64,000 bases of DNA from an uncultured Bacillota bacterium (GTDB lineage Bacteria > Bacillota_I > Bacilli_A > RF39 > UBA660). A model generated the notes under the pieces. It had not been told where the DNA came from and made no database searches. It was given only the letters and a program-made list of their open reading frames with translations. The position numbers and the translations under genes were made by a program. The DNA is taken from positions 1,963-65,962 of the forward strand of contig CAMUYN010000001.1 of NCBI GenBank assembly GCA_947165005.1, in the 5' to 3' direction. Shown here in pieces: positions 19,039 to 52,122 of this stretch. Position 1 is the stretch's first letter. Every line of letters begins with the position of its first letter.

Positions 19039-19065
19039 AAAAAGAGACAAATGTCTCTTTTTTTA
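19037..19065. terminator. Bidirectional terminator between the PBP gene and the giant gene
   Basis: AAAAAAGAGAC-AAAT-GTCTCTTTTTTT lies between convergent stop codons. Confidence 0.8.
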
Positions 19066-22000: not shown

Positions 22001-25000
22001 TCACCTATTTTAGTTACACTTGAAGGTAATACTAATTTACCTGATAAATTATTATCATTAAGAACTTTATATGGCGATCCTGCTGTTGTTGAATAATTTG
22101 ATGATGTATAATCATTTTCTATAGATGATACTGTAAGACCTAATGCTTCTAATTCTGCCCATGTTTTTATTATATTGCCATTAGCATCATATAATCCTGC
22201 ACCTAATGCCCACTGTGCATAGAGTTGAACTACACCATTATCATTTGCTAATGATACAACATTTGCTTGATCTTCATAACTTGTTCCAGAACCATCTGCT
22301 GCTGTATTCCAGCAGTCAAATACATATCCTGATTTTGTGAAACTATTTACATTTAGTGTAGTTTCTTCATAAATCCCAATATATTGATTATTCATTGTTC
22401 CACTACCACCGTTTGCATTAAATTGAACTGTATATAATGGTTTTATCCAGTAAACAGATGAATATGTTGATTTTAAATATGTGGCATTTTGTGATGTATT
22501 AGTTAATGTTACATCCGTACCACTTGTTGCAGATGCTGAAGTGGCTGTAAACCACCCATTTGGTCCTTCAAAAGTTGCTGATGCTAAACTTGTACAGTCA
22601 CTGAATGCATAAGTTCCGATACTTTTGACACTAGCTGGAATTGTGATTGAGGTTAAACTGACACAGATACGGAATGCACTATTACCAATGCTTGTTACGC
22701 TGTTTGGAATAACTATTGAGGTTAAACCGGCACAGGCATAGAATGCTTGATTACCAATACTTGTGACTCCACTTCCCATTACTATTGACACTAAATTTTC
22801 ACAATAAGCAAATGCACTACCACCAATGCTTGTTACGCTGTTTGGAATAACTATTGAGGTTAAACCGGTACAGCCATAGAATGCACTACTACCAATGCTT
22901 GTTACGCTGTTTGGAATAACTATTGAGGTTAAACCGGTACAGTTATAGAATGCACTACTACCAATGCTTGTTACACTGTTTGGAATAACTGTATTTTTTG
23001 ATCCTACTATTAATTCATTTGTTGATGTTTTAATTATTGCATTACTATTATTTCTACTATCATAAGTAGAATTATTTGAATCTACAGTTATTGTAGATAA
23101 ATTTGCACAATTTCTAAATGCTTGATTACCAATGCTTGTGACTCCGCTTCCAATTACTATTGACACTAAATTTTCACAATAAGCAAATGCAGTACTTGCA
23201 ATGCTTGTTACGCTGTTTGGAATAACTATTGAGGTTAAACCGGTACAGCCATAGAATGCATTATTACCAATGCTTGTTACGCTGTTTGGAATAACTGTAT
23301 TTTTTGATCCTACTATTAATTCATTTGTTGATGTTTTAATTATTGCATTACTATTATTTCTACTATCATAAGTAGAATTATTTGAATCTACAGTTATCGT
23401 AGATAAATTTGCACAATTTTCAAATGCAGAAGTACCAATACTTGTGACTCCACTTCCGATTGATACTGAAGTTAAGTCGGTACAACCAGCGAATGCAGAA
23501 GTACCAATGCTAGTTACGCTGTTTGGAATTATTATTTCTGTTAATCCGGTATTTTGAAACGCATAATTGCCTATAGTAGTAACACTACTTGGAATTGTGA
23601 TTGAGGTTAAACCGGTACAGCCATAGAATGCATAAGTACCAATGCTTGTGACTCCACTTCCGATTGATACTGAAGTTAAGTTGGTACTATTTCTAAATGT
23701 ATAATTGCCTATAGTAGTAACACTACTTGGAATTATTATTCCTGTTAATCTAGGATTAGAATAAAAGGCATAATTACCTATTTTTGTTATACTTGATGGC
23801 AACACTAATTTACCTGATAAATTATTATCATTAAGAACTTTATATGGTGATCCCGCTCTTGTCTTATAAGTAGATGATGTATAGTTATATTCAATTGTAT
23901 TTTTTGTTAAACCTAATGCTTCTAGTTCAGCCCATGTTTTTATTAAGTTATTATTAGAATCATATAATCCTGGAACTTGCCATTGTGCATATAAAGTTAC
24001 TGAAGTTGATGTTGTTAGATTAACAACATTTTGAGTATCATCATAACTTGTTCCAGAACCATCTGCTGCTGTATTCCAGCCAGTAAATGTATAACCATCA
24101 TTTGTAAATGCATTTGCTGTTAATTCAAAGCTAGAATCATATACTTTTACTTCTGCTGCCATAGTTCCAGTACCACCATTTGCATTATAGTTTAATGTAT
24201 ATGATATTGGAGCCCAGTTAGCATAGATTGTATGATTAGATGCTGTTGTTACTATTGTTGAACTTGTAATATATTTAGAATATCCTGCAATAAAGTCATT
24301 TCCTGATGTATTTGCATTTCCATAGAAAATTCCATTAACAAGATCATATAATCCTGCTTTTCCTGTGGAATTATTTATGCATGGAATATAATTTCTTATT
24401 AACTGTTGACTTTGATTGTAAATCTTTAATGAATATATCTTTTGACTTGCATATCTATTAAGACTTGAATTATTTGAAACATATAAATTATTTGATGTTG
24501 TTGCTATTGGATTTGTTTCAGTCAATGCGAAGGTATCACTATTATGTTTTATTTCATCATTTGTAATTGTTAAAGTATTAATACCACTTGTAAGGACAGT
24601 TAATGCTGAAGATTTTTCTACAGTTCTATATCGTAGATATGCTCTATTAAGATAATAGTATCTTCCTAATGTGAAATTATCACCAGTACCTGATAAGTAT
24701 GATTGATAATCATTAGTAGTTCCTGTTGGAGTATATTTATATTCTAATCCATAGATTGTGTTTGCTGCTACTCCTGTATTTATATATTGAGTTCCATTTG
24801 ATTCAATATATTCAATCTGTGTATATCCATTTATCTTATATATAGGAGAACCCGAAACAAAATCTTCTCCTGAATTTGCAGCATTTCCATAGAATACTTC
24901 ATTAACAGTATCATATAATCCTACTTTCCCTGTGGATTCTTCTATACATGGTATTAAGAATCTTACTAATTGTTGGCTTTGATCATAGATTTTTAATAAA

Positions 25001-28000
25001 TATATTCTTTGACTTGATAACTTATTACTACTTGTACCATTTGAAATATATAAATTATTTGCTGTTGTTGCTATTGGATTTGTTTCAGTTAATGGGAAAG
25101 TTTCATTATTATGTCTTATCTCACTACTTGTAATTGTTAAAGTATTAATACTATTTGTATAAACATCTAATGATGCAGATTTTTCTACAGTTCTATATCT
25201 TAGATATGCTTTATTAGCATACACATATCTTCCTAATGTGAAATTGTCTGAAGTACCTGATAAGTATGATTGATATCCATCAGAACTTCCTGTTGGCATA
25301 TATTTATATTCTAATCCATAGATTGTATTTGCTGCTACTCCTGTATCTATATATTGAGTTCCATTTGATTCAATATATTCTACTTGTGTATATCCACTTG
25401 GTAATGTTGGTAATGTTTCTTGATCTAGTGTCCAACCTTTAAAGTTGTATCCTGGTCTTGTTGGTGTTGGAAGTGTACCATATGCAGAACCATATGTTAC
25501 ATTCTTTGTTGATGTATTTCCTGTACCTGTCCAACCAGTTGTTGAAGGTATTGATCCACCTGTTGCATCTGCTGTAAGTGTATATGTTGCAAGAGTACAT
25601 ACTCCATATAATCTTGTATTCCCTGAAGGTATTAAATTTCCTCCACTTTGATATTCTATTGTTGTTCCTTCACTATCTGTAGTCCATCCACAGTTATATC
25701 CCGTCTTTGTGATTGTTGGTAATACTTTGCTTGGCATTGCTCCAAATTGTGCATATAAAGTTGTGTCCGCATCCCTTGCCCATTTTCCATTTGATAAGTA
25801 TCCGCTTACAGTAGCATTATTATATGTAGCAGTTGTATTTGCTTGTAGTATTAAACTTCCACCACTTGGGGCTGTATAATATCCATTTAATGACGCTGTA
25901 CTTGTTAAAGTAGATGTACTACTTACTGCAGCACCAGTTGCACTACTTAGTAAAGTAAATCCACTTATATAGTATGATTTACTTGCTAATGTTATATAAG
26001 ATGGACTTATTACACTTGAATCATATGTTGCTGTTACTCCTGATCCTCCCATGCCTGTTCCATCATTTTTATTTAGTGTTATTCTATAACTTCTTGGTAT
26101 CGCTCTCTCATATATATCATGATTTCTTGGTGTCTTAACAATAGTTGAACTTGTTATAAAGTCCACTGGCCCTTTATTGAACGAATAAACAGTTGCATCA
26201 CTATAGAAAGTATTAGTTACTAAATCATATAATCCCGCTTTTCCTGTAGATTCATTTATACATGGGATATAATCTCTTACTAATACTTCTGAATCATATA
26301 TCTTAAAACTATATACGTTTCCTTTAAATCTACTTGAATCTGCTGTTCCAGCATTATTCCATGTTCCTATATAAATATTATAGAAATTAGTAAGTGGTCC
26401 TCTGTTTGAAATTGTTTGATCTACACCATCTATCTGATATATGTCATTACTTAAAACCAATTTATGTTTATTTCCGTCTCTTAAATTCATAGTTGTTGCA
26501 TATTGTGTAGTTTCTGCACCAAATGCAACAGATACTGCTGTTGTTGTGGCTTCACCAAATATCAACCCATCTTCATTAACATTTTTTCTCGCTCCAAAGT
26601 ATGCTAATCCAGTAGTTGCTGAGAATTCTGTTTCAATTTTTAGTGATTGTTTTGTTAATACTCCTGTATCTATATATCCACCATTAAATGTTATATATTC
26701 CAATTGCGTATATCCAGCAGGTAATAAACTCCAACCAACATCATAACCTGTCATTGTTGGTAAAGCTGGTAGTGTTCCATATGCACTATCATATGTCACT
26801 GATTTTGTTGCTGTGTTTCCTGTACCTGTCCAGCCACTTGTTGCTGGTATTGGAGTACCACTAGAATTTGCAGTTACTGTATATGTTGCTAGAGTACATA
26901 CTCCATATAATGTTGTATTTCCTGAAGGTATTAAATTACCCCCACTTTGATATTCTATTGTAGTTCCTGAACTATTTGTTGTCCAGCCACATGTGTATCC
27001 CGCCTTTGTGATTGTTGGTAATACTTTGCTTGGCATTGCTCCAAATTGTGCATATAAAGTTGTATCTACATCTCTTGTCCAAGTTCCACTCGATAAGTAA
27101 TTAGTTACAGATGTGCTATTATATGTAGCGGTTGTATTACCTTGTAATATTAAATTTCCACCGCTTGCTGCAGTATAATATCCATTTAATGTTGCTGTAC
27201 TTGTTAAAGTAGATGTACTACTTACTACTGCATTAGCTGCACTACTTAGTAATGTAAATCCACTTATTGTATATGATTTACTTGCTAATGTTATAGAAGA
27301 TGGACTTATTACACTTGAATCATATGTTGCAGTTATACTTGTTGTTCCATCACTTGTTCCATCATTTTTATCTAATGTTAATGTATATGTTTTTGTTATC
27401 CATTCTGCATGTAAATTTAATTTATTTGTTGAGTCTACATATTCTGTTGCAGTTTCAGCTTTTTCAAATTTAAGACCCGCAATTTGTACTGCTCCATTTC
27501 CTGATGCAGTACCAACCCCTATTCGATTTAAATATCTTCCAGAAGTTCTTGCGTTATATGTACCTGCTGTATTAGTTGTTACAGGTATTACTTTCATTTC
27601 ATATCTTTGCCATGTATCTGTTAGAGTAAATGATTGTTCTCTATAAGGAGTAGAATTACCTGCTCTTAAAATTATACTTCCTGAACCTTTTGCATATACG
27701 CTTACTGTATATGATTGATTTGGTTCAACTAATAAGTAATTAAAATATACATAGAAATTTGAAGAAAGTGTATTTGATGGGATATTAAATCCTTTTGTTA
27801 TTAGGCTAGATGGTGCATCAGTTACATCTATTTGTGTTGGACTAAGTGATGTTGATGATTTAGCCCATCTTCCTGAATATGCATAAGAAGTTGTGTTTGA
27901 TGGTACTGCTGGTGCTGATGTTCCTACTAGCATATTAGGATTAATATTCATACTATCTTGATTATTATAATCAACTCCAGTACCTAAGCTATTAGTATTC

Positions 28001-31000
28001 CAATTGGAATATGTATAACCTGTTCTATTATATGCATTTGCTGTTAATGTTCCTGCAGTTCCATAAGTTAATGATTGATCGCTCATAGAACCAGATGTAG
28101 AACCATTTCCATCAAATACTACATCATAAGTATTCTTTTGCCATAATGCATATAGGTTATATGTACCATTATTTGTCTTTGTTAAATTACTTACGCTTTG
28201 TTTATCATAGTAAATTGATGTTGTAGCTCCATTAGCTAATCTAGACCATCCAATAAATGTATAACCAGTTCTTGTAAATGCATTTTGTGTTAATGCTTGA
28301 GCTACGTCATATGTAAATGATTGGTTAGACATTGTTCCGCTACCACCATTTGCATTAAATTTAACTTGGAATGTATTAGCAGTCCAATGTGCATAATATG
28401 TTTTATCTGATGCTGGAACTGGAGTACTACTTGAAATAGCATTTCCACCAGTTGCTGCATCATACCAACCAGTAAAATTATATCCTGGTTTTGTTACTGG
28501 ATCTGGAATATCTAATGTATTTCCATATACATATGGTCTAGTTATTGTTAATGTCTTATGGTTAGTAGCTGTTGTAAATGGACTAGTATCAGTTCTATTA
28601 TCTCTTGTACCGATTTTTAAAGTCTTTGTTCCTTGACCAATAATATTATATGTATCAGTCATAGATATATTAGTATTTGTTCCAGTTGCAGTAAATGTAT
28701 ATGTATGAGTACTTGCTACCCAACTAAATGAATATGTAATATCCGCATTTCTACCTACTGTAGTAGAAGATACTTGATCATATTCACCGTTACCAAGTAA
28801 TATTCTAAATTTATTTGCTGTAGTTAATTCTATATTAAGAGCCTTATCAGGATCAGTATAACTACCTATTACTAAATAACGTTTTGCATTTGTTCCATAT
28901 TTAAATACACCATTAATTGTGAAATCATTATCCCAATCAATAATATATCCAGTATCTGCTGTCTCACCACTAGCAAATGCTATTTGAACAGTATTTCTAT
29001 AATCGTATGTAATTAAATATGTATTAGCAGTAGCATTAGCTGTATATGTTTTATTTTCGTTTACTGTAATTACTGAAGATTTATCAGGAAGTATTGATGT
29101 TCCTGTCCAATTACTGAATGAATATCCAGGAACTAATGTTGCATCAATAGTTACACTTCTACCATTAATATAATTAACTGCAGATGTTGTACTTGTTCCA
29201 TTATTAGTTACATCACTAATTCCTGTTCCTTTTGTTAATGTAACACTGTATACTGTTACTGATTTTGTTCCTGCAGATGAATCACTATAGTTAGAGTTTG
29301 GTGCCTTTGCTATTACTGATACTGCTCTACTTCCTGTTGCTGCTACTATATCAGTATTTTTATTTACTCCACTTGTAGCATTTGCATAGCTTCCGTTTGC
29401 TACTTTTACTTGATGTTGTGCACTTGAACAGTTACTACTTGCTGTCCATGTTACAACTCCTGTATTTGATACTGCTACTGCTGTTGGAGTAGCACATTGT
29501 AATTTATTTACTTTAATTGTATATGTAGCAGATTTTGTTGCTCCAGTAACACTATCTGTTGCTGTTATTGTTACAGCATATCCAGTTGAATTTGCTGGTG
29601 TGTTTGCTGCTACTACTATATTTCTTCCACTTAAGCTGAAGTAATTATTTGTATTTTCTCCAGTTATAGCATATGTATAAGTTCCTGATCCATTTGTTGC
29701 TGCATTTACCCCATTAGTTATTGTTTGAGCTGCACTTGGATTATATGTACTTGATACTTCTTTATCCGCAAATGTTAATTCATTTGCTTCCCATTTAGCA
29801 TATATTACATGATCATGTGCTAAATTTACTATTGATGAACTTGTTATATATTCTTCTTGGCCTGCTGTGAAGTCATTTCCTGATGAGTTTGAATTACCAA
29901 AGAATTCTCCACTTACTAAATCATATAATCCTACTTTTCCTGTAGATTCTTCTATACATGGAATATAATCTCTTACTAATACTTCTGAATCATATATCTT
30001 AAAGCTATATACCTTTCCATTAAACATTCTTGAATCTGCTGTTCCAGCATTATTCCATGTTCCTATATAAATATTATAGAAATTAGCAAGCGTTCCTCTA
30101 TTTGAAATTGTTTGATTTACATCATCTATTTGATATATATCATTACTTAAAACTACTTTATGCTTATTTCCATCCATTGCATTAATAGTTGTTGTATAAG
30201 CATCCGACCTTGTACCAAATCCAACATATGCTGTATTTGATGTGAAGTAACCAAATACTAAACTATCTGCAGAAGAAATCCTTCTTGCTCCAAAGAATAA
30301 TTTTTTATTAACAGTTGTTGAGAATTCTGACTCAATTTTTAATGTTTGTTTTGATGGTACTCCAGTATCTATATATTGAGATTCATTAAATGTTATATAT
30401 TCTACTTGTGTATACCCTTCTGGAAGTACTGACCATCCTTTTAATGTATATCCAGTTCTTGATACAGTTGGTAATGTTCCATACGCAGATTTATATGTGG
30501 CATTCTTTGTTGATGTATTTCCTGTACCTGTCCAGCCAGTAGTTGATGAGATTGTTCCACCATTTGAACTTGCTATTACTTGATATGTTGATGGTGTCCA
30601 TTCAGCTGTTATTGTATGATTTTGTGGATTAACTACATTAGAACTAGAAGTAATATAATATGGTTCATAATCATTTATAGTTGTTCCTTCAAAAATAGAC
30701 ATTTTAATTCTATAAGTTCCAGTTACGCCATTATTTGATTGGAACCAGAAAGAACCCAAAGTGACATTAGAAAAATCTGATCTTGTTTTAAATGTTTTTA
30801 CAATCTTACCAGTAAAACCTAGTGATCCAAGATTAATTCTAGTGCTGCCACCATAATTAAGAATATAAAATCTATCGTCTGTAGCTAGGAATAGTTCTTT
30901 ATCAAAAGTATTTTCTAAAACATCGATAACCAATGTATAAGTAGTATCTGTTTTAGGAACCCATTTAGTTTTATTTAAAATTCTATCATAAACTCCAGCA

Positions 31001-32040
31001 TTTAATGTTATTTCTTCGGAGCCTTGAGTGTGAGTACTGCTTGTGAAAGTCATAGTATCTGGATTAAAGATATTGCTTCCTCTCCATCCAACAAAGTCAT
31101 AACCAGATTTTGTTGGGGTTGGTAATGTTCCATATGCATTATTGTATGTTACATCTTTTGTAGATATTGCTCCTGTACCTGTCCAGCCAGTAGTTGAAGG
31201 TATATTTCCTCCGTTTGCATCTGCTGTTACTGTTATTTGAGGAATAGTTACTGTTAATTCTTTTACTTTTCTTTCATTACTAACGTTATCAAAAGTATAT
31301 ACATGAGTAATATATACTCCGCCTTCATTATTATGATCAGAAATATTTACTCTATATGTCCATGTTCCATTTCCATTATCAGTTCCAGTATATGATGCAC
31401 TTGTTCTCCATGGTTGAAGTAAATCATCTTTTCCATTTAAACTTGTCCATGTTGGGAATTGAACTCTATTTACTCCACTAAAGTTTCCATCTGTTACTCC
31501 AGTTACTACAACATCATATCCAGTTGGAGATATATTTGTAACATATGCATCTGTTGCAGTTGGAGCATCTTTATCAAGATATGGATTTGATCCACCAACA
31601 GGTAATGTACATGTTCTTGAGTTTAAGTATGCATCTTGTAATGTTACTGTTACGCTTTCTCCATCACTCTTGATTGATGTTGTATAATCTTTTACGTCTT
31701 TAAAGTATCTTTTTGTATTTCCTGCTGCTGTTACAGTATCTACATTGATACATCCATAATCGCCTTCCATGTTATCTGTACATTCGATAAATAAAGTTTT
31801 ATCTGTATTTGTCCATGTTGTGTTTGTTCCTGGATTTATAAATTTATTTTGATTATATGCTTCTTGAGTAGTTAATGAAGAGTCTCTTAAATACCAACTT
31901 CCACAAGTTGGTGCAGTAGTGTCCTTTAATACGCTTCCTTCTCCAGTGATATTTAACTCACTATTAAAAGCCGCATATGCTACGGATATAAAAGTCAAAA
32001 GAAAAATTGTAACAAAACTTAAAGCATAATTCTTCTTCAT
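19063..32040 (-). CDS. Giant (4325 aa) secreted or surface mosaic repeat protein with Listeria-Bacteroides (Flg_new-type) repeats, BspA-type leucine-rich repeats, a GBS Bsp-like repeat and CBM-like modules
   Basis: It is a single uninterrupted ORF. The N-terminal signal/TM sequence is MKKNYALSFVTIFLLTFISVAYA. Other recognisable parts are VNRVQFPTWTSLNGKDDLL...YITHVYTFDN (Bsp-like), many GYTFxGWNT...LYAQW units, and dozens of 23-aa IPNSVTSIGxxAFxxCTGLTSIV units. There is no LPXTG and no C-terminal TM helix. Confidence 0.9.
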   Translation of the reverse strand: MKKNYALSFVTIFLLTFISVAYAAFNSELNITGEGSVLKDTTAPTCGSWYLRDSSLTTQEAYNQNKFINPGTNTTWTNTDKTLFIECTDNMEGDYGCINVDTVTAAGNTKRYFKDVKDYTTSIKSDGESVTVTLQDAYLNSRTCTLPVGGSNPYLDKDAPTATDAYVTNISPTGYDVVVTGVTDGNFSGVNRVQFPTWTSLNGKDDLLQPWRTSASYTGTDNGNGTWTYRVNISDHNNEGGVYITHVYTFDNVSNERKVKELTVTIPQITVTADANGGNIPSTTGWTGTGAISTKDVTYNNAYGTLPTPTKSGYDFVGWRGSNIFNPDTMTFTSSTHTQGSEEITLNAGVYDRILNKTKWVPKTDTTYTLVIDVLENTFDKELFLATDDRFYILNYGGSTRINLGSLGFTGKIVKTFKTRSDFSNVTLGSFWFQSNNGVTGTYRIKMSIFEGTTINDYEPYYITSSSNVVNPQNHTITAEWTPSTYQVIASSNGGTISSTTGWTGTGNTSTKNATYKSAYGTLPTVSRTGYTLKGWSVLPEGYTQVEYITFNESQYIDTGVPSKQTLKIESEFSTTVNKKLFFGARRISSADSLVFGYFTSNTAYVGFGTRSDAYTTTINAMDGNKHKVVLSNDIYQIDDVNQTISNRGTLANFYNIYIGTWNNAGTADSRMFNGKVYSFKIYDSEVLVRDYIPCIEESTGKVGLYDLVSGEFFGNSNSSGNDFTAGQEEYITSSSIVNLAHDHVIYAKWEANELTFADKEVSSTYNPSAAQTITNGVNAATNGSGTYTYAITGENTNNYFSLSGRNIVVAANTPANSTGYAVTITATDSVTGATKSATYTIKVNKLQCATPTAVAVSNTGVVTWTASSNCSSAQHQVKVANGSYANATSGVNKNTDIVAATGSRAVSVIAKAPNSNYSDSSAGTKSVTVYSVTLTKGTGISDVTNNGTSTTSAVNYINGRSVTIDATLVPGYSFSNWTGTSILPDKSSVITVNENKTYTANATANTYLITYDYRNTVQIAFASGETADTGYIIDWDNDFTINGVFKYGTNAKRYLVIGSYTDPDKALNIELTTANKFRILLGNGEYDQVSSTTVGRNADITYSFSWVASTHTYTFTATGTNTNISMTDTYNIIGQGTKTLKIGTRDNRTDTSPFTTATNHKTLTITRPYVYGNTLDIPDPVTKPGYNFTGWYDAATGGNAISSSTPVPASDKTYYAHWTANTFQVKFNANGGSGTMSNQSFTYDVAQALTQNAFTRTGYTFIGWSRLANGATTSIYYDKQSVSNLTKTNNGTYNLYALWQKNTYDVVFDGNGSTSGSMSDQSLTYGTAGTLTANAYNRTGYTYSNWNTNSLGTGVDYNNQDSMNINPNMLVGTSAPAVPSNTTSYAYSGRWAKSSTSLSPTQIDVTDAPSSLITKGFNIPSNTLSSNFYVYFNYLLVEPNQSYTVSVYAKGSGSIILRAGNSTPYREQSFTLTDTWQRYEMKVIPVTTNTAGTYNARTSGRYLNRIGVGTASGNGAVQIAGLKFEKAETATEYVDSTNKLNLHAEWITKTYTLTLDKNDGTSDGTTSITATYDSSVISPSSITLASKSYTISGFTLLSSAANAVVSSTSTLTSTATLNGYYTAASGGNLILQGNTTATYNSTSVTNYLSSGTWTRDVDTTLYAQFGAMPSKVLPTITKAGYTCGWTTNSSGTTIEYQSGGNLIPSGNTTLYGVCTLATYTVTANSSGTPIPATSGWTGTGNTATKSVTYDSAYGTLPALPTMTGYDVGWSLLPAGYTQLEYITFNGGYIDTGVLTKQSLKIETEFSATTGLAYFGARKNVNEDGLIFGEATTTAVSVAFGAETTQYATTMNLRDGNKHKLVLSNDIYQIDGVDQTISNRGPLTNFYNIYIGTWNNAGTADSSRFKGNVYSFKIYDSEVLVRDYIPCINESTGKAGLYDLVTNTFYSDATVYSFNKGPVDFITSSTIVKTPRNHDIYERAIPRSYRITLNKNDGTGMGGSGVTATYDSSVISPSYITLASKSYYISGFTLLSSATGAAVSSTSTLTSTASLNGYYTAPSGGSLILQANTTATYNNATVSGYLSNGKWARDADTTLYAQFGAMPSKVLPTITKTGYNCGWTTDSEGTTIEYQSGGNLIPSGNTRLYGVCTLATYTLTADATGGSIPSTTGWTGTGNTSTKNVTYGSAYGTLPTPTRPGYNFKGWTLDQETLPTLPSGYTQVEYIESNGTQYIDTGVAANTIYGLEYKYMPTGSSDGYQSYLSGTSDNFTLGRYVYANKAYLRYRTVEKSASLDVYTNSINTLTITSSEIRHNNETFPLTETNPIATTANNLYISNGTSSNKLSSQRIYLLKIYDQSQQLVRFLIPCIEESTGKVGLYDTVNEVFYGNAANSGEDFVSGSPIYKINGYTQIEYIESNGTQYINTGVAANTIYGLEYKYTPTGTTNDYQSYLSGTGDNFTLGRYYYLNRAYLRYRTVEKSSALTVLTSGINTLTITNDEIKHNSDTFALTETNPIATTSNNLYVSNNSSLNRYASQKIYSLKIYNQSQQLIRNYIPCINNSTGKAGLYDLVNGIFYGNANTSGNDFIAGYSKYITSSTIVTTASNHTIYANWAPISYTLNYNANGGTGTMAAEVKVYDSSFELTANAFTNDGYTFTGWNTAADGSGTSYDDTQNVVNLTTSTSVTLYAQWQVPGLYDSNNNLIKTWAELEALGLTKNTIEYNYTSSTYKTRAGSPYKVLNDNNLSGKLVLPSSITKIGNYAFYSNPRLTGIIIPSSVTTIGNYTFRNSTNLTSVSIGSGVTSIGTYAFYGCTGLTSITIPSSVTTIGNYAFQNTGLTEIIIPNSVTSIGTSAFAGCTDLTSVSIGSGVTSIGTSAFENCANLSTITVDSNNSTYDSRNNSNAIIKTSTNELIVGSKNTVIPNSVTSIGNNAFYGCTGLTSIVIPNSVTSIASTAFAYCENLVSIVIGSGVTSIGNQAFRNCANLSTITVDSNNSTYDSRNNSNAIIKTSTNELIVGSKNTVIPNSVTSIGSSAFYNCTGLTSIVIPNSVTSIGSSAFYGCTGLTSIVIPNSVTSIGGSAFAYCENLVSIVMGSGVTSIGNQAFYACAGLTSIVIPNSVTSIGNSAFRICVSLTSITIPASVKSIGTYAFSDCTSLASATFEGPNGWFTATSASATSGTDVTLTNTSQNATYLKSTYSSVYWIKPLYTVQFNANGGSGTMNNQYIGIYEETTLNVNSFTKSGYVFDCWNTAADGSGTSYEDQANVVSLANDNGVVQLYAQWALGAGLYDANGNIIKTWAELEALGLTVSSIENDYTSSNYSTTAGSPYKVLNDNNLSGKLVLPSSVTKIGDYAFYQNTKVTAIVIPRSTYYIGINAFSSCTNLAQAEFINSNNWYASSTSDGTSGTDLTLTSTSQNATYLKTTYSDKYWKRRRTYKIVYNANGGTGTMADQDVEVSSGVQLRDLNYTRNGYVFTGWNTKLNGTGTSYSNKAVITPTLSENEKLNLYAQWDYEPGLFDSNGELIKTWSELEALGLTKATVETDYTSSSYRTTAGSPYKVLNDNNLSGKLVLPSSITKIGNYAFYSNSRLTGIIIPSSVETLGTYCFYASRITSVTLSDGLKTIRQNAFYSISGLITITIPGSVTLIESRGLANYAFTTVNFKNTEGWYRSSSSSFTSETSVSFSDPAQAASELKNNYYYRTTAYKISFNANGGNGTMNSQYAAAGQTVSLSTNTFTKDNYSFIGWNTASDGSGTSYQNGASVSNLASSNQTVVLYAQWERIAGLFDSNGNIIKTWAQLEALGLTKSKIEQDYTSSNYSTTTGSPYKVFSDNNLTGKLMLPDGINKIGNYAFKNCPGLTSITIPEGINNIGAYAFDGCTSLTSADFISTSDWHASSTSDGTSGTSLTLTNTSQNATYLKTTYSDKYWKKYGYTISFNANGGSGTMDNQFVSLSEQTTLNKNTYTYILYRFAGWNTSPNGSGDAYLDEAQIYQLGTVDDNVILYAQWEYAFPPGLYDSNDNMIKTWAELEALGLTASTVEYDYTKSNSSTTAGSPYKVFYDNDLSGKLVLPSSVTKIGNCAFYENTGLTGIIIPNGVTSIGSNAFGDCENLVSIVMGSGVTSIGTDAFYGCENLSTITVDPNNSTYDSRNNSNAIINTSTNELILGSMNTIIPNTVTKIGDDAFAKRALTSIIIPNSVTTIGRYSFSACNSLTSIVIPDSVTSIGDDAFDSCANLTTVTIGSGVTSIGNAAFVGCSNLTSVTIGSGVTSIGRGAFLACSKLTSATFNDPNGWFVSTLPDATSGTDLTLTNTSDNATYLKTTYRQYYWKKSTN
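22685..22960 (-). repeat. 69-nt (23-codon) tandem LRR repeat array; two adjacent units differ by 2 nt
   Basis: Unit starts are at 22685, 22754, 22823 and 22892, with the next at 22961. By my reading, units 22823-22891 and 22892-22960 are identical except CC/TT. Confidence 0.85.
22961..23419 (-). repeat. 306-nt-period tandem duplication with about 153-nt near-identical cores
   Basis: 22961-23113 and 23267-23419 differ at 2 positions by my reading. Both encode NLSTITVDSNNSTYDSRNNSNAIIKTSTNELIVGSKNTVIPNSVTSIG. A diverged third copy lies at about 19540-19680. Confidence 0.85.
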
Positions 32041-32140: not shown

Positions 32141-32173
32141 TATAAAAAAAAGATTGATTATTTTTCAATCTTT
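32141..32173 (-). terminator. Intrinsic terminator of the noc/parB-like gene
   Basis: AAAGATTGA-N7-TCAATCTTT followed by a T-run on the minus strand. The stop codon lies in the loop. Confidence 0.75.
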
Positions 32174-33090
32174 ATTATGAACTCAAATAGCTTATCAAAT
32201 TCATAAGAATCATAGGTAGAAACATATCCTTCTTCCTTTAATTCTTCAACGAATTTCTTTATTTTTTCTTGTAAAACATCTTTTTTGTCATTGTCTGTTT
32301 CTTCATCAAGTAATAATGTTTCTTCCATTTCAATAGAAGGATTTGTTTTATCCTCAATTTCTGGATATACCTTATCTTCTATTTCAGGTATATCTTTAAA
32401 TAGATTATCAAAATCTATAGTATCACTTTTACTTGATGGACCAAGCGTTTTCCCAACACTTCTAATTGGTTCTAATTCATCAGTTTCTTTAAGGCTATCT
32501 ATTAATCTATCAGTATCTCTGACATTTAGTCTTTCTTTTATAATTGTTCTTAATAATTCTACTTGTTCTTCTTTGTCTTCTATTCTTAATAGACTTCTTG
32601 CATGTCTTTCACTAATCTCATTATTTAATAAGGCGTCTTGTACTTCATCAGATAAATTTAATAGTCTTAATTTATTAGAAATTGCTCCTTGAGTTTTGCC
32701 CATTCTAACAGCTAACTCTTCTTGAGTTAGATAACCTCTATCTAATAATTTTTTATATGATTTAGCTTCTTCTAAAGCAGATAAATCTTTTCTTTGAATA
32801 TTTTCTACAATAGCTACTTCTGCTGATTCATTATCATTTAAATCTATTACTACTGCTGGTACTTTAGTTAAACCTGCGATAAAAGACGCTTTAAATCTTC
32901 TTTCACCGGCAATTATTTCGTATTTATTACCTACTTTTCTTAAGACTAATGGTTGAATAATACCATGTTGTCTAATAGATTTTGCTAGTTCATTTAATGC
33001 ATCTTCATCAAAAGATAATCTTGGTTGAAACCTATTAGGGATTATATCATCTAAAGATACTTCAATTATTTCTTTTTCCATATTATTCAT
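32158..33090 (-). CDS. noc: ParB/Spo0J/Noc-family protein with a Noc-like recognition helix
   Basis: It contains IIPNRFQPR, QHGIIQPLVLRK and YEIIAGERRFKA (CTP-binding GERRxR box). The HTH region GKTQGAISNKLRLL...ISERHARSLL and the C-terminal end EFDKLFEFIIKIEK resemble B. subtilis Noc more than Spo0J, by comparison from memory. Confidence 0.85.
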   Translation of the reverse strand: MNNMEKEIIEVSLDDIIPNRFQPRLSFDEDALNELAKSIRQHGIIQPLVLRKVGNKYEIIAGERRFKASFIAGLTKVPAVVIDLNDNESAEVAIVENIQRKDLSALEEAKSYKKLLDRGYLTQEELAVRMGKTQGAISNKLRLLNLSDEVQDALLNNEISERHARSLLRIEDKEEQVELLRTIIKERLNVRDTDRLIDSLKETDELEPIRSVGKTLGPSSKSDTIDFDNLFKDIPEIEDKVYPEIEDKTNPSIEMEETLLLDEETDNDKKDVLQEKIKKFVEELKEEGYVSTYDSYEFDKLFEFIIKIEK

Positions 33091-33135
33091 ATTATCAACT
33101 CACTTCTTATTCTTATACATATATAATAATATAAT

Positions 33136-33163
33136 AAAAAATCCATTTTTTCAATGGATTTTT
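33136..33163 (-). terminator. Intrinsic terminator after the 181-aa gene
   Basis: AAAAATCCATT-N6-AATGGATTTTT with a T-run on the minus strand. Confidence 0.7.
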
Positions 33164-33164
33164 A

Positions 33165-33710
33165 TTATTTTAATATTTTTTTCTTTTTTTCATCTTGTAT
33201 AGATGACTCATATTTTATTAATAGTTCTAAATAATTTCTTGCATTTAATAATCTTGCTTTTCTTTTAACATCACTAAATAAAATATTACCATCTTCATCT
33301 AATTCTTTTTTACAATAACCAACAGCTAATCTCTTATAATTAAAATCTTCTTCAGACATTTTTTTTGATTTTTCTTTTATTTCTAATTCTGATAAAAATG
33401 TATTTTCTGTTTCTTTTATAAACTTACTTGTTTTATCTGTTTCGTTTTGAAAATATATTGATATTTCATCAAAATCTTCATTTTTTAATGTCTTTAATTT
33501 TTCTTCTAATAATTCTCTTATTGCTATTTCTAACAACTCTGAATTGTAATCTTTTTTTAATTCACTGTTTATTTTTATTTTCTTTAATCCTTCAAATAAT
33601 TCTAGGTATGAAAGATTACTAATTTGATCCTTTAAGGCATTCTTATAATCCTCCATTTTTATTATCATTTCTTTATTTGAATTCATTATTTGTTCTAATT
33701 TATTTTTCAT
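33165..33710 (-). CDS. Hypothetical K/E-rich, predicted helical protein (181 aa)
   Basis: The ORF sits between rsmG and the ParB-family gene, in the position normally taken by noc/soj. No Walker A motif and no family recognised. Confidence 0.55.
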   Translation of the reverse strand: MKNKLEQIMNSNKEMIIKMEDYKNALKDQISNLSYLELFEGLKKIKINSELKKDYNSELLEIAIRELLEEKLKTLKNEDFDEISIYFQNETDKTSKFIKETENTFLSELEIKEKSKKMSEEDFNYKRLAVGYCKKELDEDGNILFSDVKRKARLLNARNYLELLIKYESSIQDEKKKKILK

Positions 33711-33719: not shown

Positions 33720-34427
33720 CTATAATGGTCTATTTTTTATTTCATTATAATTTCTTGGATACTTAGTTTTAGTATCACTTATTTTCTTTATAATTACTAA
33801 ATTTCTAATACTATTTTCTATTGGTAAATTAAATGAAACTATATCTTCTAATTTTGAATTTAATTCGTTTATTGAATTAGAAGCTTCTTCTAATTCACCT
33901 TCAATGGATCCCTTCATCGGAATAAAATATCCATTTATTTTAACTAAAGGAATACACATTTCATTTAATATATTTAATCTTGCCATAGCTCTACTTGTAA
34001 CAATGTCGTATTTATTTCTATTATTTCTAGCAAATATTTCTGCACGTTCTTTGCAAATAAATAGGTCTTTTAAATTTAGTTTTTCCTTTACTAAATAAAG
34101 AAATCTAACTCTTTTTTGCAATGTTTCTACTAAAGTTATTTTAAGCTGTGGAAAACATATTTTAAGAACAATTCCTGGAAAACCAGCTCCTGTTCCTATA
34201 TCACATAAAGTTAGTCCTTGAGTAAGGTCAATTGCCTTAATTAGAGTTAAACTATCATAGAAATGTTTAAGATAAACATCCTCTTTTTCAGTAATTCTAG
34301 TTAAGTTAACTTTTTCGTTATAATCAATTAATAACTCATAGAACTCTTCTAGCTGTTCTAACTGCTTTTCACTAAGATGAATATTTAATTTTTCTACTTC
34401 TTTTATAAAATTATTTAGATTCATCAA
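33720..34427 (-). CDS. rsmG: 16S rRNA (guanine527-N7)-methyltransferase RsmG
   Basis: It contains NLTRITEKEDVYLKHFYDS, DIGTGAGFPGIVLKI and VTSRAMARL. It overlaps the mnmG stop. Confidence 0.92.
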   Translation of the reverse strand: MMNLNNFIKEVEKLNIHLSEKQLEQLEEFYELLIDYNEKVNLTRITEKEDVYLKHFYDSLTLIKAIDLTQGLTLCDIGTGAGFPGIVLKICFPQLKITLVETLQKRVRFLYLVKEKLNLKDLFICKERAEIFARNNRNKYDIVTSRAMARLNILNEMCIPLVKINGYFIPMKGSIEGELEEASNSINELNSKLEDIVSFNLPIENSIRNLVIIKKISDTKTKYPRNYNEIKNRPL

Positions 34428-36234
34428 AATACCTCTTCATATATACTGATAAAATAGCTATATCACTAGGATTTACTCCACTAATTCTTGAAGCTTGTGA
34501 GAATGATAATGGTCTAACTTCTTTTAATTTTACTCTTGCTTCTGATGCTAAGTTAGGAACTTTATCATAATCAATATCAACTGGAATTTTTTTGTTTTCA
34601 AGTTTTCTCATTTTTTCTGCTTCTTTTCTAGCTTTCTTTATATATCCTTCATATTTAATTTGTATTTCTGCTTGTTCTAATTCTAATTCATCATATTTTT
34701 TACTTAATTTATCACTTATATCATTGATAGAATTCTCTGTTCTCTTAATAAAATCTATACCATTCATTTTTCTATCAGATTTAATATTTATATTCTTTAA
34801 TTCATTTATTATATTATTAATATTTTTTTCTTTTTTCATTAATTTATTATATTGTTTCTTGTTAATTAAGCCTACTTCATAACCATATTTTCTTAATCTT
34901 AAATCTGCATTATCACTTCTAAGTAATAATCTATATTCTGCACGAGATGTAAGTAATCTATATGGATCTCTAACACCTTTAGTAACTAGATCATCAATTA
35001 AAACTCCAATATATGCTTCATCTCTTTTTAATATTAATGGTTCTTTTCCTTGTAATTTTAATCCTGCATTAATACCTGCCATTAATCCTTGACATGCTGC
35101 TTCTTCATAACCACTTGTACCGTTTATTTGTCCTGCAGTATAAAGTCCAGATATAATTTTTGTTTCAAGTGATGGATATAAATCCATTGAATCAATAGCA
35201 TCATACTCTATTGCATAACCATATCTAAGTATTTTAGCATTTTCAAGTCCTGGTAATGAATGGACCATTTCATCTTGTACTTCTGGTGGCATACTTGTTG
35301 AGAATCCTTGAAGATATATGTCATCAAAGTATCTACTTTCTGGTTCTAGGAATAATTGATGTCTTTCTTTATCAGCAAATCTAACTACTTTATCCTCAAT
35401 TGATGGACAGTATCTAGGTCCTACTCCTAATTTTTCTTTTATTCCACCATACATACTAGATTTATTAAGATTTTTTCTTATTATTTCATGAGTCTTAGGA
35501 GTAGTATAAGTTAAATAACAAGGTTCTTGTTCTTCTACTTTATAATATGGTTTATCATCAAACGAGAATGTATATAATTTATCATCCCCTGGTTCCATCT
35601 TACACTTAGTAAAATCAATAGAACTTCTTTCAATTCTTTGTGGTGTTCCAGTCTTTAATCTTAGTATTTTAAAACCTAATTTTTCTAGATTATCACTTAA
35701 ATGAAGTGAGGCCCTGGTATTAGAAGGACCTGATCTAGTTCTAGTATCACCTACTAAGATATCAGCCTTCATATATGTACCAGTTGTTAATATAACTGCT
35801 TTAGATTCTATTTTTTCTCCATTAGATAGAATTACGCCTTTTACTGCACTATCTTCAATTATAAGGTCTTCTACCATTTCTTCAAGTAGAGTAACATTCT
35901 TTTCTTCTTTTAGAATTCTTTGCATTTCTTTAGGATAAGCAACTTTATCTCCTTGAGACCTAAGTGATCTAACTGCTGGTCCTTTAGCAAAGTTAAGCAT
36001 TTTCATTTGAAGTAAAGTTCTATCTGCGACTTTACCCATCATACCACCTAAAGCATCAATTTCTCTAACAACAATACCTTTAGCAGATCCACCAATATGT
36101 GGATTACATGGCATCATTGCTATCTTATCAATAGACCCTGTAACTAAAATTGTTTTGAATCCCATTTTAGCAGCACTTAGTGTAGCTTCAACTCCAGCAT
36201 GTCCACCACCAACAACGATAACGTCACATTTCAT
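34411..36234 (-). CDS. mnmG: tRNA uridine 5-carboxymethylaminomethyl modification enzyme MnmG
   Basis: It starts MKCDVIVVGGGHAGVEA (FAD motif). GAGGTG-AAGTTC-ATG at 36234 is the probable start. Confidence 0.95.
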   Translation of the reverse strand: MKCDVIVVGGGHAGVEATLSAAKMGFKTILVTGSIDKIAMMPCNPHIGGSAKGIVVREIDALGGMMGKVADRTLLQMKMLNFAKGPAVRSLRSQGDKVAYPKEMQRILKEEKNVTLLEEMVEDLIIEDSAVKGVILSNGEKIESKAVILTTGTYMKADILVGDTRTRSGPSNTRASLHLSDNLEKLGFKILRLKTGTPQRIERSSIDFTKCKMEPGDDKLYTFSFDDKPYYKVEEQEPCYLTYTTPKTHEIIRKNLNKSSMYGGIKEKLGVGPRYCPSIEDKVVRFADKERHQLFLEPESRYFDDIYLQGFSTSMPPEVQDEMVHSLPGLENAKILRYGYAIEYDAIDSMDLYPSLETKIISGLYTAGQINGTSGYEEAACQGLMAGINAGLKLQGKEPLILKRDEAYIGVLIDDLVTKGVRDPYRLLTSRAEYRLLLRSDNADLRLRKYGYEVGLINKKQYNKLMKKEKNINNIINELKNINIKSDRKMNGIDFIKRTENSINDISDKLSKKYDELELEQAEIQIKYEGYIKKARKEAEKMRKLENKKIPVDIDYDKVPNLASEARVKLKEVRPLSFSQASRISGVNPSDIAILSVYMKRYFDESK

Positions 36235-36307
36235 GAACTTCACCTCTTTTCTTTAAAAGCATATGTATTATACTACAAAATATAAAAAAGTAAAAATATT
36301 TATATTT

Positions 36308-37276
36308 TTATTTTAATATTTGCCAATGTCCTGTCTTATCTGAACCTATCCTTTCTATAATACAGTTTTCTATTAATACCTTAAAATTTCTCTTAATTGT
36401 TCTTACATTTACTCCCAATTTGTCTGCAATTTCTTGTTGAGTAATCTTATTATCATTTATTACTAATTCTATTATTTTATTTTGAATATCATTTAAAGCA
36501 AAATTACTATTCTTAATAATTTTATCTATTGATGAATTTATTATTCTTAATAAAAACTTAATAAAAATATTAGCATTATGATTTATATGACATTGAGTGA
36601 TTGATGAATAGTATTCTTCTTCATTCAAATACAGTTCTTCTTCAATAGGAATAAATTCAAAATTTTTGTGATATTTTATTAACATTAATGTAAGCCAATA
36701 TCTTGCCAATCTTCCATTACCATCAGAAAAGGGATGTATTGCTACAAAATAATAGTGAAATATTGCTGCCAATATCATTTGATTTAAAGCACTTTTTTTT
36801 ATGTATTCAAATAGGCTTTTCATTAATGATGGCACTAATATTGATTCTGGAGCAATATATATAATTACTTCTTCTTTTTTTACTCCCTCTCCATGTGTTC
36901 TATATTTTCCATTATCCTCATCAAAATATTTCATCATTATTTGTTGTACTTTTAGTAAATCTTTTTCACTTTTATAATCATATTTGCTTATATTATTATA
37001 AGCTTCCAAACCATTTTTTACTGCTTGTATTTCGTCTTTTTTACCAAGTATTTGCTTATTTTGTAATAAATTTTCAACATCAAATAAAGATATTGAAATA
37101 TCCTCAATACTAAGTGATGAATGAACAGATCTTACTCTAGCTTTAGTAACCATATATTTTCTTTTTTGTCTATCATTTATTTTTATTATGCTTAATTTAG
37201 TATTGATATTCTCTAATAAATCTTCTATTTCATCATCAATATAAAATACAGGTTCTATTTTATCAAACATATTCAT
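36308..37276 (-). CDS. Fic family protein with a C-terminal winged-HTH
   Basis: It has the canonical Fic motif HPFSDGNGRLARYW and the C-terminal region ITQQEIADKLGVNVRTIKRNFKVLIENCIIERIG. Confidence 0.88.
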   Translation of the reverse strand: MNMFDKIEPVFYIDDEIEDLLENINTKLSIIKINDRQKRKYMVTKARVRSVHSSLSIEDISISLFDVENLLQNKQILGKKDEIQAVKNGLEAYNNISKYDYKSEKDLLKVQQIMMKYFDEDNGKYRTHGEGVKKEEVIIYIAPESILVPSLMKSLFEYIKKSALNQMILAAIFHYYFVAIHPFSDGNGRLARYWLTLMLIKYHKNFEFIPIEEELYLNEEEYYSSITQCHINHNANIFIKFLLRIINSSIDKIIKNSNFALNDIQNKIIELVINDNKITQQEIADKLGVNVRTIKRNFKVLIENCIIERIGSDKTGHWQILK

Positions 37277-42470: not shown

Positions 42471-42549
42471 AAATTGCCTGTTTTTGCTTGAAATATAAGG
42501 AAAATAAGGTATAATTAGTTATGAAAGTACCTGGGGGAAGGTGAAACAA

Positions 42550-43932
42550 ATGGAGAATAAGGATCTTGTTTGGGAAAAATTTCTTAGTATTATAAAAAAA
42601 AGAGTTTCATCTATTGGTTATGAGACTTGGTTTAAAGAGACTAGATTACATTCTCTAGGTGAAGACGCAGTCATTGTTGTTTCCACAATAGCTCATAAAA
42701 AACACTTATCAGAAAGCTATGGCGATATAATAAGTGAAATATTAAATTCTATAACAGGTACTAACTTTAATTTAAAATTTGTATTAGAAAGTGAAATAGA
42801 TAAGGAAGAACATGAAGAATTAGTTGAAAAACAAGAAGAATTAGGTGTTCCTTATAATAGTTATAAAGATGCTAACTTAAATCCCGAATATAAATTTGAA
42901 AACTTTATAGTAGGAGAGAGTAATAAGTTTGCACAAGCTACTGCACTTGCAGTCGCGGAAAACCCTGGTAAAATGTATAATCCTTTATTTATATATGGAA
43001 ACAGTGGATTAGGTAAAACTCACTTGATGCATGCAATAGGTAATTATATTGTGGAAAATACTAATAAAAAAGTATTATATGTTTCATCTGATACATTTAT
43101 AAATGATTGGATAGGTATAAATAGAACTACTAATGGAAATAATTTTGATAAAAAAGAATATTTTAATAATAAATATAGAAATGTAGATGTATTAATAATA
43201 GATGATATACAATTTTTAGGTAATGCACCTAAATCTCAAGAAGCATTTTTCCACACATTTAATACATTATTTGATAATAAAAAGCAAATTATAATATCTA
43301 GTGATAATTCTCCAGATGATTTAAAGAATCTTGAAGATAGATTAAGAACTAGATTTAACTGGGGATTAAAAGTAAATATTTTTCCACCAGATAATGAATT
43401 AAGAAAAAGAATATTAAAAAATAAACTGACAAATATGAATTTTGCACAACATATGTCAGAAGAAGCATTTGATTATATAGCAAATACTTGCCAATCAGAT
43501 GTAAGAGAATTAGAAGGAACTTTAACTAGAGTATGTGCTTATGCCACAATATTTTTCCAAGAAGAAATAACGTTACAAACAGTTATTGATGCAGTAGGTA
43601 AGACAAAATTCTCTAATAATAGTAATCCTTATGGTAGTGGATCTAATAGTTATGATATAAATAGAATACAAAAATGTGTTGCTAATTATTATAATGTAAC
43701 TGTTGAAGATCTAAAATCTAAAAAGAGAGTAGCAAATATTGCATTTCCAAGACATATAGCTATATATTTATCAAGACAATTAACTGATGAATCTTTCCCA
43801 AGAATAGGTATGGAATTTGGTGGAAGAGACCATTCTACAGTAATGAGTTCTTGTGATAGAATAGAAGAAGAATTAAAAAGTAATAAACAATTAGAAAAAG
43901 TAATAGAGGAAATCAAAAGAAGATTAGAATAA
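42550..43932 (+). CDS. dnaA: Chromosomal replication initiator protein DnaA
   Basis: It contains YNPLFIYGNSGLGKTHLMHA, DVLIIDDIQFL and the C-terminal region IAFPRHIAIYLSRQLT...GGRDHSTV. ATG 42550 after GGGGGAAGGTG is the probable start. A TTGAAA-16 nt-TATAAT promoter lies at 42488-42515. Confidence 0.97.
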   Translation: MENKDLVWEKFLSIIKKRVSSIGYETWFKETRLHSLGEDAVIVVSTIAHKKHLSESYGDIISEILNSITGTNFNLKFVLESEIDKEEHEELVEKQEELGVPYNSYKDANLNPEYKFENFIVGESNKFAQATALAVAENPGKMYNPLFIYGNSGLGKTHLMHAIGNYIVENTNKKVLYVSSDTFINDWIGINRTTNGNNFDKKEYFNNKYRNVDVLIIDDIQFLGNAPKSQEAFFHTFNTLFDNKKQIIISSDNSPDDLKNLEDRLRTRFNWGLKVNIFPPDNELRKRILKNKLTNMNFAQHMSEEAFDYIANTCQSDVRELEGTLTRVCAYATIFFQEEITLQTVIDAVGKTKFSNNSNPYGSGSNSYDINRIQKCVANYYNVTVEDLKSKKRVANIAFPRHIAIYLSRQLTDESFPRIGMEFGGRDHSTVMSSCDRIEEELKSNKQLEKVIEEIKRRLE

Positions 43933-51441: not shown

Positions 51442-51457
51442 TGTTTCACGTGAAACA
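51442..51457. promoter_or_regulatory. parS site A (perfect TGTTTCACGTGAAACA)
   Basis: It is an exact 16-mer, embedded in a 26-bp perfect palindrome at 51437-51462, followed by a T-run (terminator-like) after gyrA. Confidence 0.85.
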
Positions 51458-51476
51458 TTGTTTTTTTACTAAAAAA

Positions 51477-51492
51477 TATTTCCCGGGAAATA
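51477..51492. promoter_or_regulatory. NBS-type palindrome A (perfect TATTTCCCGGGAAATA)
   Basis: It is an exact 16-mer within the 28-bp palindrome AAAAAATATTTCCCGGGAAATATTTTTT at 51471-51498. It matches the Noc-binding site consensus as I recall it. Confidence 0.7.
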
Positions 51493-51551
51493 TTTTTTTT
51501 GATAATTTTTATTATTTATGATATATTTAATGTGAAACTGGTGATAAAAAT

Positions 51552-52094: not shown

Positions 52095-52097
52095 AAA

Positions 52098-52113: not shown

Positions 52114-52122
52114 TTTTTTATA

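Follow-up and report, generated by a model that had tools for sequence, protein, structure and literature searches.

Which protein reads the parS sites near a replication origin when the one ParB-family protein encoded there resembles Noc, and what is left of Noc when its membrane-targeting helix is missing? Both questions arise from a 64,000-nucleotide stretch of an uncultured Bacillota bacterium (GenBank assembly GCA_947165005.1, contig CAMUYN010000001.1; hereafter the window), which carries a ParB-family gene for a protein of 310 amino acids (aa) at 32158–33090 on the minus strand and, at 51442–52730, parS and 16-bp Noc-binding sites (NBS), three of each, all perfect and arranged in doublets. 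An initial annotation of the window had described the gene as Noc-like in its DNA-reading helix, short at its N-terminus and without a ParA partner, and had raised the possibility of a dual-specificity intermediate. We analyzed the open reading frame (ORF) using Pfam, NCBIfam, PDB alignments, a tree, AlphaFold and Foldseek. As judged from its sequence, the gene is by descent a Noc ortholog; measured by the functional definition of Noc, it lacks one of the defining features, namely an N-terminal membrane helix. Taken as a whole, it is probable that the protein is the Noc ortholog of uncultured low-GC Bacilli of gut and rumen, that it acts as the predicted NBS clamp, and that parS is left to Spo0J.

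The 310-aa protein comprises an N-terminal domain (NTD, residues 1–100), a DNA-binding domain (DBD, residues 101–204), an acidic disordered linker (residues 205–268) and a C-terminal dimerization domain (CTD, residues 269–310). Pfam identified ParB_N (PF02195, 2e-33, residues 7–99) and HTH_ParB (PF17762, 1.6e-33, residues 101–201), and the presence of both, with CTP-binding boxes in the former, places the protein in the ParB/Spo0J/Noc CTPase superfamily. The ParB-type CTP-binding motif is the GERR box (residues 62–65; 32896–32907, minus strand), and its companion is the ENIQR box (residues 96–100; 32791–32805, minus strand). Eight residues of these boxes (G62, E63, R64, R65, E96, N97, Q99 and R100) are invariant among 42 diverse family members. 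The equivalent residues of Noc, R89 and N121, are required for CTP binding (PMC8429893). The AlphaFold model (mean pLDDT 62, a low value) displayed the expected NTD and DBD and a C-terminal helix followed by two strands, with the linker disordered. Consistent with alignment to canonical Noc, the CTD (32161–32286, minus strand) is of Noc type; its end, YEFDKLFEFIIKIEK, matches EEEFEDYYQITIRIPKK of canonical Noc.

Several comparisons placed the protein with Noc. Among PDB sequences, Noc ranked first (7NG0/7NFU, 209 bits; 7OL9, 187 bits), followed by Spo0J (6SDK, 173 bits). The top NCBIfam model was TIGR04285 (nucleoid_noc, 274.6 bits, covering model positions 1–198 of 255), and the next was TIGR00180 (parB_part). 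Foldseek likewise ranked Noc first, and the DBD superimposed on the Noc–NBS structure 6Y93 with TM scores of 0.90–0.95. In a neighbor-joining tree of the NTD and DBD, an unrooted distance tree with a small taxon sample, all 200 bootstraps split canonical Noc together with the family of the window protein from the Spo0J proteins (B. subtilis and relatives), and 189 of the 200 also separated the family from canonical Noc. Gene order offers a further comparison. The Noc arrangement is rsmG-noc-soj-spo0J; at the window, rsmG lies upstream with a 181-aa ORF in between and soj-spo0J does not follow, whereas the complete order was found in 21 of 69 related loci counted as informative (2.5 kb or more of sequence available downstream).

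Like Noc of B. subtilis, Geobacillus thermoleovorans and Staphylococcus aureus (TIGR04285; 7NFU, 7OL9, 6Y93), the window protein has GERR and ENxQR CTP boxes, the recognition residues Q173, K179 and R201 (C. crescentus ParB numbering), a CTD of the form EEFDxxYQIxIKIxK, a gene position after rsmG and perfect 16-bp NBS in its genome. It differs from them in having 17 instead of 35–39 residues ahead of the PNRFQPR box, Asn instead of Lys at position 184, a long, acidic and disordered DBD–CTD linker (63 aa here; family median 215 aa) with an FF motif, NBS that are paired with parS beside oriC, and a score under the curated Noc cutoff. With Spo0J/ParB (6SDK, 1VZ0, 4UMK) it shares the fold, the CTP boxes and ~44% identity in the NTD and DBD. 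In contrast to Spo0J, it carries Q134 and R162 in place of R173 and G201, has neither the N-terminal ParA-interaction peptide ALG[KR]GLEELF nor any other LGKGL-type peptide, lacks a ParA partner gene within ~79 kb, and ends in a different CTD; moreover, its relatives encode a separate, genuine Spo0J.

To understand which DNA site the protein would read, we turned to the helix-turn-helix and recognition region, GKTQGAISNKLRLLNL...ISERHAR (residues 131–165; 32596–32700, minus strand), using the alignment, the tree and the published specificity map (PMC7383237). The four specificity residues Q134, K140, N145 and R162 correspond to positions 173, 179, 184 and 201 of C. crescentus ParB. Published states at these positions are RTAG for ParB and QKKR for Noc (PMC7383237); in our alignment the window protein reads QKNR, Noc QKKR and Spo0J RHTG. 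The reference sequences quoted in the initial annotation proved accurate: PDB alignments gave ...GKGQSTIANKLRLLKL...ITERHARALI for B. subtilis Noc and ...GKSRPHIANHLRLLTL...LSMGHGRTLL for Spo0J, and the first 227 residues of the quoted Noc were 100% identical to the database copy (P0407). Its assignments of Gln, Lys and Arg as Noc-type states, of Asn as neither a Noc nor a Spo0J state, and of a Noc-like C-terminus likewise hold. Three of the four residues are thus identical to Noc, and K184 is not kept.

Published rules bear directly on this combination. Q173 selects A1 and R201 selects C6 of NBS (Jalal et al. 2020, PMC7383237); with both in place, a single Lys at 179 or 184 suffices for NBS preference, and variants with neither Lys are dead (PMC7383237). 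Since Q173, R201 and one Lys are sufficient by these rules, QKNR predicts an NBS-specific reader. The prediction of NBS-only binding is rule-based, as QKNR was absent from the two supplementary files of the mutational scan of Jalal et al. 2020 that were searched. Nor is QKNR an oddity of this gene, because it is the norm in the family: Q173 and R201 occur in 151 of 151 family sequences and the full QKNR in 113 of 151, and the remaining sequences nearly always keep Lys at 179 (few Thr, one Arg) with a residue other than Asn at 184. The suggestion of a dual-specificity intermediate therefore finds no support in these positions.

The site for such a reader is present in the same window. The NBS at 51477–51492, a perfect TATTTCCCGGGAAATA, is paired with parS at 51442–51457; the second, at 52098–52113, with parS at 52123–52138; and the third, at 52715–52730, with parS at 52677–52692. 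Matches to NBS with up to three mismatches would be expected 0.37 times in the window by chance, and three perfect copies of TATTTCCCGGGAAATA were observed; perfect sites also occur in seven related loci, consistent with NBS being the cognate, predicted target. The doublets lie ~9–10 kb from dnaA, each NBS beside a perfect parS, and a bacterial small signal recognition particle (SRP) RNA (52173–52270, plus strand, 55.4 bits) is located between two of them. At the same locus, close relatives keep perfect parS (two to four copies) and perfect NBS (two to three copies), with different spacers. An exact-match scan further recovered parS-N(5–35)-NBS in at least 120 metagenome contigs (loci L082–L201) spanning a wide range of gyrA divergence; in nearly all of them the sites lie in the gyrA/SRP RNA/tadA/dnaX intergenic regions, often with two to eight doublets per locus. 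Bases flanking each parS differ between the window and the relative L169 yet stay palindromic, which indicates that the parS sites sit in extended hairpins at gene ends; these may double as terminators. Perfect NBS were also seen outside the doublet locus: in L042 (7239), L048 (7338) and L056 (7274) they recur at about the same distance, ~2.7 kb, upstream of the Noc-like gene, and other related loci such as L059 (7284) carry them as well.

Who, then, reads parS? When all six translated frames of the window were queried by phmmer with Soj, Spo0J and Noc, ORF 32158–33090 was the sole match, and the KGGxGK Walker motif was absent from all frames. The sequence could be extended by 10 kb on the right and 5 kb on the left from assembly ERZ14209547, which derives from the same organism; this brought the region searched to ~79 kb around oriC, and neither extension contained ParA or ParB. 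The earlier observations that this is the sole ParB-family gene in the window and that no soj/parA or second parB lies nearby were thereby borne out. Directly downstream of the Noc-like gene, soj and then spo0J were found in 21 of the 69 informative related loci, one more locus ends within soj, and the other 48, like the window, lack an adjacent pair. In L003, a soj-spo0J pair is located 7 kb upstream, divergent from rnpA; used as a protein query, its Spo0J matched sequences of its own genus (at least 83% identity) and gave no link to the window genome. The Spo0J proteins of the relatives have the parS-type R173, the HTH sequence GKSRSHITNMLGLL and the N-terminus ALG[KR]GLEELF typical of a ParA-stimulating peptide. 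Since canonical soj-spo0J stands beside the short Noc-like gene in 21 of 69 loci, parS has its own reader in the clade. As indirect support for such a reader in the window organism as well, the three parS are perfect 16-mers and the doublets are kept in relatives; we therefore consider it very likely that a Spo0J-type parS reader is encoded elsewhere in this genome. The soj-spo0J pair must lie outside the ~79 kb examined, or it has been lost. As side observations, parS with up to one mismatch was absent from all 80 related loci that we viewed, even those carrying spo0J, and 7 of 22 relatives' Spo0J proteins have Ser (L042, L044, L048, L062, L070 and L071) or Thr (L074) at position 201 (ISMSHAR, PLTHAR); G201 is described as absolutely conserved in extant ParB (Jalal et al., PMC7383237).

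We then examined the N-terminus. The PNRFQPR box is preceded by 17 residues in the window protein and by 35–39 in 36 canonical Noc sequences, and residue 5 aligns to residue 27 of B. subtilis Noc in the PDB alignment. Noc is characterized by a membrane-targeting amphipathic helix, α1, and a conserved helix, α2 (Adams et al. 2015, PMC4331003; Jalal et al. 2021, PMC8429893), and canonical sequences start with MKHPFSRFF. The numbers above indicate that α1 (residues 1–10) and α2 are both missing here. The ATG of ORF 32158–33090 is the earliest start codon past an in-frame stop, and the gap to the upstream ORF is 74 bp, which leaves no hidden N-terminal extension; the early remark that the protein has no room for the membrane-targeting helix is correct.

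This short form is shared by a whole clade. From an HMMER scan of 1.84 billion cluster representatives at 50% identity, we took the best 150 matches (257–442 bits), whose alignments begin at their own residue 1–5. The PNRFQPR box is at residue 15–20 in 144 of 149 representatives, and nearly all of the 150 end in the Noc-type EEFDFExxYQIIIKIxK. Family proteins are 340–820 aa long, owing to the long variable linker, and more than 120 close homologs are 71–100% identical to the window protein along its full length. A second scan, with one genome per species, yielded 80 loci, all from metagenome-assembled genomes of uncultured gut or rumen bacteria, of which 10 kb on each side of the match was viewed. 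In nearly all of the 80 the frame upstream of the box is open for fewer than 35 residues (two loci reach at least 45), and no sequence resembling the Noc helix was found upstream of the box in these open frames; in about 75 of the 80, rsmG is directly upstream of the Noc-like gene. Record titles name Bacilli, Tenericutes, Mycoplasma sp., Erysipelotrichaceae and Clostridium sp. CAG:609, a clade that we take to be probably the GTDB order RF39. A profile search for intermediate lineages, built on mixed canonical and family sequences, returned Geobacillus/Bacillus Noc and the clade of the window, with nothing in between. In the literature that we searched, whose coverage is incomplete, we found no description of helix-less Noc, of Noc in RF39 or of parS–NBS doublets. 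The short N-terminus is a clade-wide variant rather than a broken or truncated copy.

The linker of the window protein (32287–32478, minus strand) contains 19 Asp/Glu and 6 Lys/Arg, and AlphaFold shows residues 205–267 as disordered; across the family the linker has a median length of 215 aa, is rich in Glu, Asn and Pro and is poor in Arg. Family linkers harbor a motif with the consensus P-G-K-F-F-N-F-L-E-D-E-E-A-N-M, which in most members reads [NG][KR]FF-N-F-L-E-D-E. Of 146 linkers, 80 contain [KR]FF, compared with 3.6 after shuffling, and 99 contain [KR]F[FILM], compared with 14. The counterpart of [KR]FF-x-F-x-EDE in the window protein is a degenerate FF motif, TIDFDNLFKDI (residues 224–234; 32389–32421, minus strand). 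Neither F227 nor F231 varies within the close clade of the window protein (F-x-x-L/F-F, compared with F-S-R-F-F in canonical Noc), and the basic residue is gone. Next to the motif, tandem octapeptide repeats P-x-I-E-D-K-x-Y occupy 32335–32388 (residues 235–252), with a copy number that varies among the close homologs P0002–P0120, and are followed by an invariant EETLLL(D/E).

The family motif resembles the Noc helix, whose canonical form reads M-K-H-P-F-S-R-F-F-S-F-G-E-K-E-Q-E-E. We built a position-specific scoring matrix (PSSM) exclusively from linker [KR]FF instances and applied it to 30 non-redundant canonical Noc sequences with 300 shuffles each. In 28 of 30, the best-scoring segment was the N-terminal membrane helix, with up to 18 bits and in register with S-R-F-F-S-F-G-E-K-E, and for most of them 0 of 300 shuffles reached the observed score; nothing was found in Spo0J. 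The motif [NG][KR]FFNFLEDE is reminiscent of the short amphipathic sequences (K/R-x-FFG type) with which MinD and Noc target the membrane. Hydrophobic moments are alike (0.4–0.6); the net charge is +2 in the canonical helix, about 0 in the family motif and −2 in TIDFDNLFKDI. Unlike the MinD and Noc sequences, which are terminal, the family motif is internal, within an acidic tract. Negative charges introduced into the Noc helix abolish membrane binding (Adams et al., PMC4331003); with a net charge of −2 in its motif, the window protein may, by analogy, have little or no affinity for membranes. Another possibility is that the motif serves a different purpose, for instance docking on the NTD, as the FF residues of α1 do in canonical apo-Noc (PMC8429893).

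These results suggest the following model. The Noc-like protein would form a CTP-gated clamp that loads on the 16-bp NBS palindromes and spreads locally, next to Spo0J clamps loaded at the adjoining parS, which canonical Spo0J would read. In B. subtilis, Spo0J and Noc jointly control the timing of the Z-ring (PMC6852036), making a joint origin-proximal Spo0J–Noc complex plausible by analogy. Most speculatively, an effect on division or origin organization would be exerted via the FF motif of the linker, through a weak contact with the membrane or with a partner; with the canonical N-terminal helix ruled out as effector in the window protein, the FF motif of the acidic linker would be the likeliest contact element, if the protein makes such a contact at all.

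Several points weigh against the reading of the gene as a Noc ortholog with a relocated contact motif. The TIGR04285 score of 274.6 bits falls below the curated cutoff of 315. Position 184 is Asn, where canonical Noc nearly always has Lys. Confidence in the AlphaFold model is low and its linker is without structure, so that the model supports the domain layout and nothing beyond it. The PSSM similarity stems mostly from the K/R-F-F triad on which the instances were selected, the flanks N/S-F-L/G-E-D/K-E contributing few bits; because the triad dominates the score, we treat the relationship between motif and helix as a lead only. The PSSM also misses the motif of the window protein itself, with its net charge of −2. 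Finally, a second ParB or Noc, or a lack of Spo0J, is possible beyond the ~79 kb that were examined.

That the sole ParB-family protein here reads both parS and NBS would explain doublets in a genome without Spo0J, and it would fit the absence of any other ParB-family gene around oriC, the Asn at the fourth specificity position, the constant adjacency of parS and NBS, and the 48 of 69 informative relatives that also lack an adjacent soj-spo0J pair. We nevertheless regard it as very improbable, since the switch in specificity lies with Q173 and R201, a single Lys being enough, known dual-specificity variants mix elements of both classes and mostly carry Thr or Ser at 201, parS-specific binders have an invariable R173 (PMC7383237), and relatives with the same Q-K-x-R protein encode an adjoining parS-type Spo0J. 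A truncated or decaying paralog, with a full-length, helix-bearing Noc elsewhere in the genome, could likewise account for the shorter N-terminus and the score under the NCBIfam Noc cutoff. This we consider extremely unlikely: the same short form is kept in the best 150 representatives and in 80 species genomes, where it has an adjoining soj-spo0J pair in 21 of the 69 informative loci, the gene is at the ancestral rsmG-noc(-soj-spo0J) position, the catalytic and DNA-reading residues are invariant, and the many close homologs match at full length.

For a Noc ortholog that would bind NBS, two accounts of function, each held tentatively, remain to be compared. One proposes that the membrane-targeting and autoinhibitory peptide of Noc sits in the acidic disordered linker, as [NG]-K-F-F-N-F-L-E-D-E, rather than at the N-terminus, either by relocation or as an older arrangement in which NBS specificity preceded N-terminal tethering, and, given the conserved doublet arrays beside gyrA, with Noc and Spo0J clamps loaded side by side at the origin; we regard this as a possible, speculative arrangement. 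The other, also doubtful to us, is a membrane-independent role, in which the Noc-clade protein forms a second CTP-clamp domain beside Spo0J at the doublet array and serves origin organization, segregation or division timing, the linker motif being autoregulatory or partner-binding. The absence of the N-terminal helix throughout the clade, the acidic character of the FF motif in this genus (considering what negative charges do to the Noc helix, PMC4331003), the conservation of doublet arrays at gyrA-tadA-dnaX in at least 120 contigs, the docking of FF residues onto the NTD in apo-Noc (PMC8429893) and the joint action of Spo0J and Noc on the Z-ring (PMC6852036) all favor it. Yet in most of the family the FF motif is amphipathic, retains a basic residue and comes very close to the canonical helix, pointing to membrane contact retained in the family, and relatives also have NBS away from the doublet locus, as would befit a nucleoid occlusion factor. 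Loss of the basic residue in the genus of the window suggests, at the sequence level, a further shift away from membrane binding.

Deletion of ten N-terminal residues abolishes membrane binding and function of Noc, and the helix was reported to be extremely conserved in every homolog examined (PMC4331003, PMC8429893). The current model of Noc rests on this N-terminal amphipathic helix, and an abundant gut and rumen lineage has Noc orthologs without it. The helix-less clade therefore represents a natural test set for whether Noc-clade proteins need membrane tethering, for how the CTP switch may be coupled to an internal motif, and for the order in which DNA specificity and membrane targeting arose after parB duplication. 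It also matters for annotation: because the family scores below the curated Noc cutoff, helix-less Noc proteins are likely labeled as generic ParB. Two features keep the case interesting: the membrane helix has been lost or relocated throughout the clade, and the parS–NBS doublets are conserved.

The transcription signals around the gene are consistent with a monocistronic unit, as initially proposed. A promoter-like site, TTGAAA-17-TATTAT (33126–33154, minus strand), lies upstream and overlaps the hairpin after the upstream ORF, and an AT-rich hairpin with a U-run overlaps the stop codon (32144–32173, minus strand; folding z-score −3.9), a likely intrinsic terminator. A second hairpin with a U-run is directly 3′ of the upstream ORF. 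Both AT-rich hairpins flanking the gene were found by folding and were not flagged by a consensus terminator scan. The promoter-like site and the U-run hairpins just before and just after the gene fit the monocistronic reading.

The surroundings identify the window as a replication origin region, with the GC skew switching sign near 42 kb. At the switch, ORF 42541–43932 (plus strand) matched, when used as a query, ORFs at the dnaA position beside gyrB-gyrA in related contigs, and we therefore read it as dnaA. Upstream of the Noc-like gene, Pfam identified rsmG (33720–34427, minus strand), the synteny anchor, preceded by mnmG (34411–36243, minus strand). Between rsmG and the Noc-like gene, the Lys/Glu-rich 181-aa ORF (33165–33710, minus strand) matched no Pfam or NCBIfam family, was seen in the same species alone (L001) and was absent from 80 of 80 related loci; having neither a family nor a counterpart in these loci, it was rejected as a candidate partner. 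Downstream, where soj-spo0J sit in Bacillus and in the 21 related loci, is the gene of a secreted, repeat-rich 4325-aa surface protein (19063–32040, minus strand), with a GC content of ~32%, compared with ~24% in neighboring genes.

Further features were noted in the origin-flanking region. The otherwise conserved cluster is interrupted immediately upstream of mnmG by a gene (36308–37276, minus strand) whose product combines a Fic domain with a winged-helix domain at the C-terminus, and a ribosomal protein L10 leader was detected at 3803–3929 (minus strand, 79.1 bits). SpoVT-like, YabG (Peptidase_U57) and SpoIID proteins and a class A penicillin-binding protein are encoded in the right-hand extension (L202) and at 17122–19038 of the window. 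These genes indicate a walled, possibly spore-forming Firmicute, and yet related records are titled Tenericutes or Mycoplasma.

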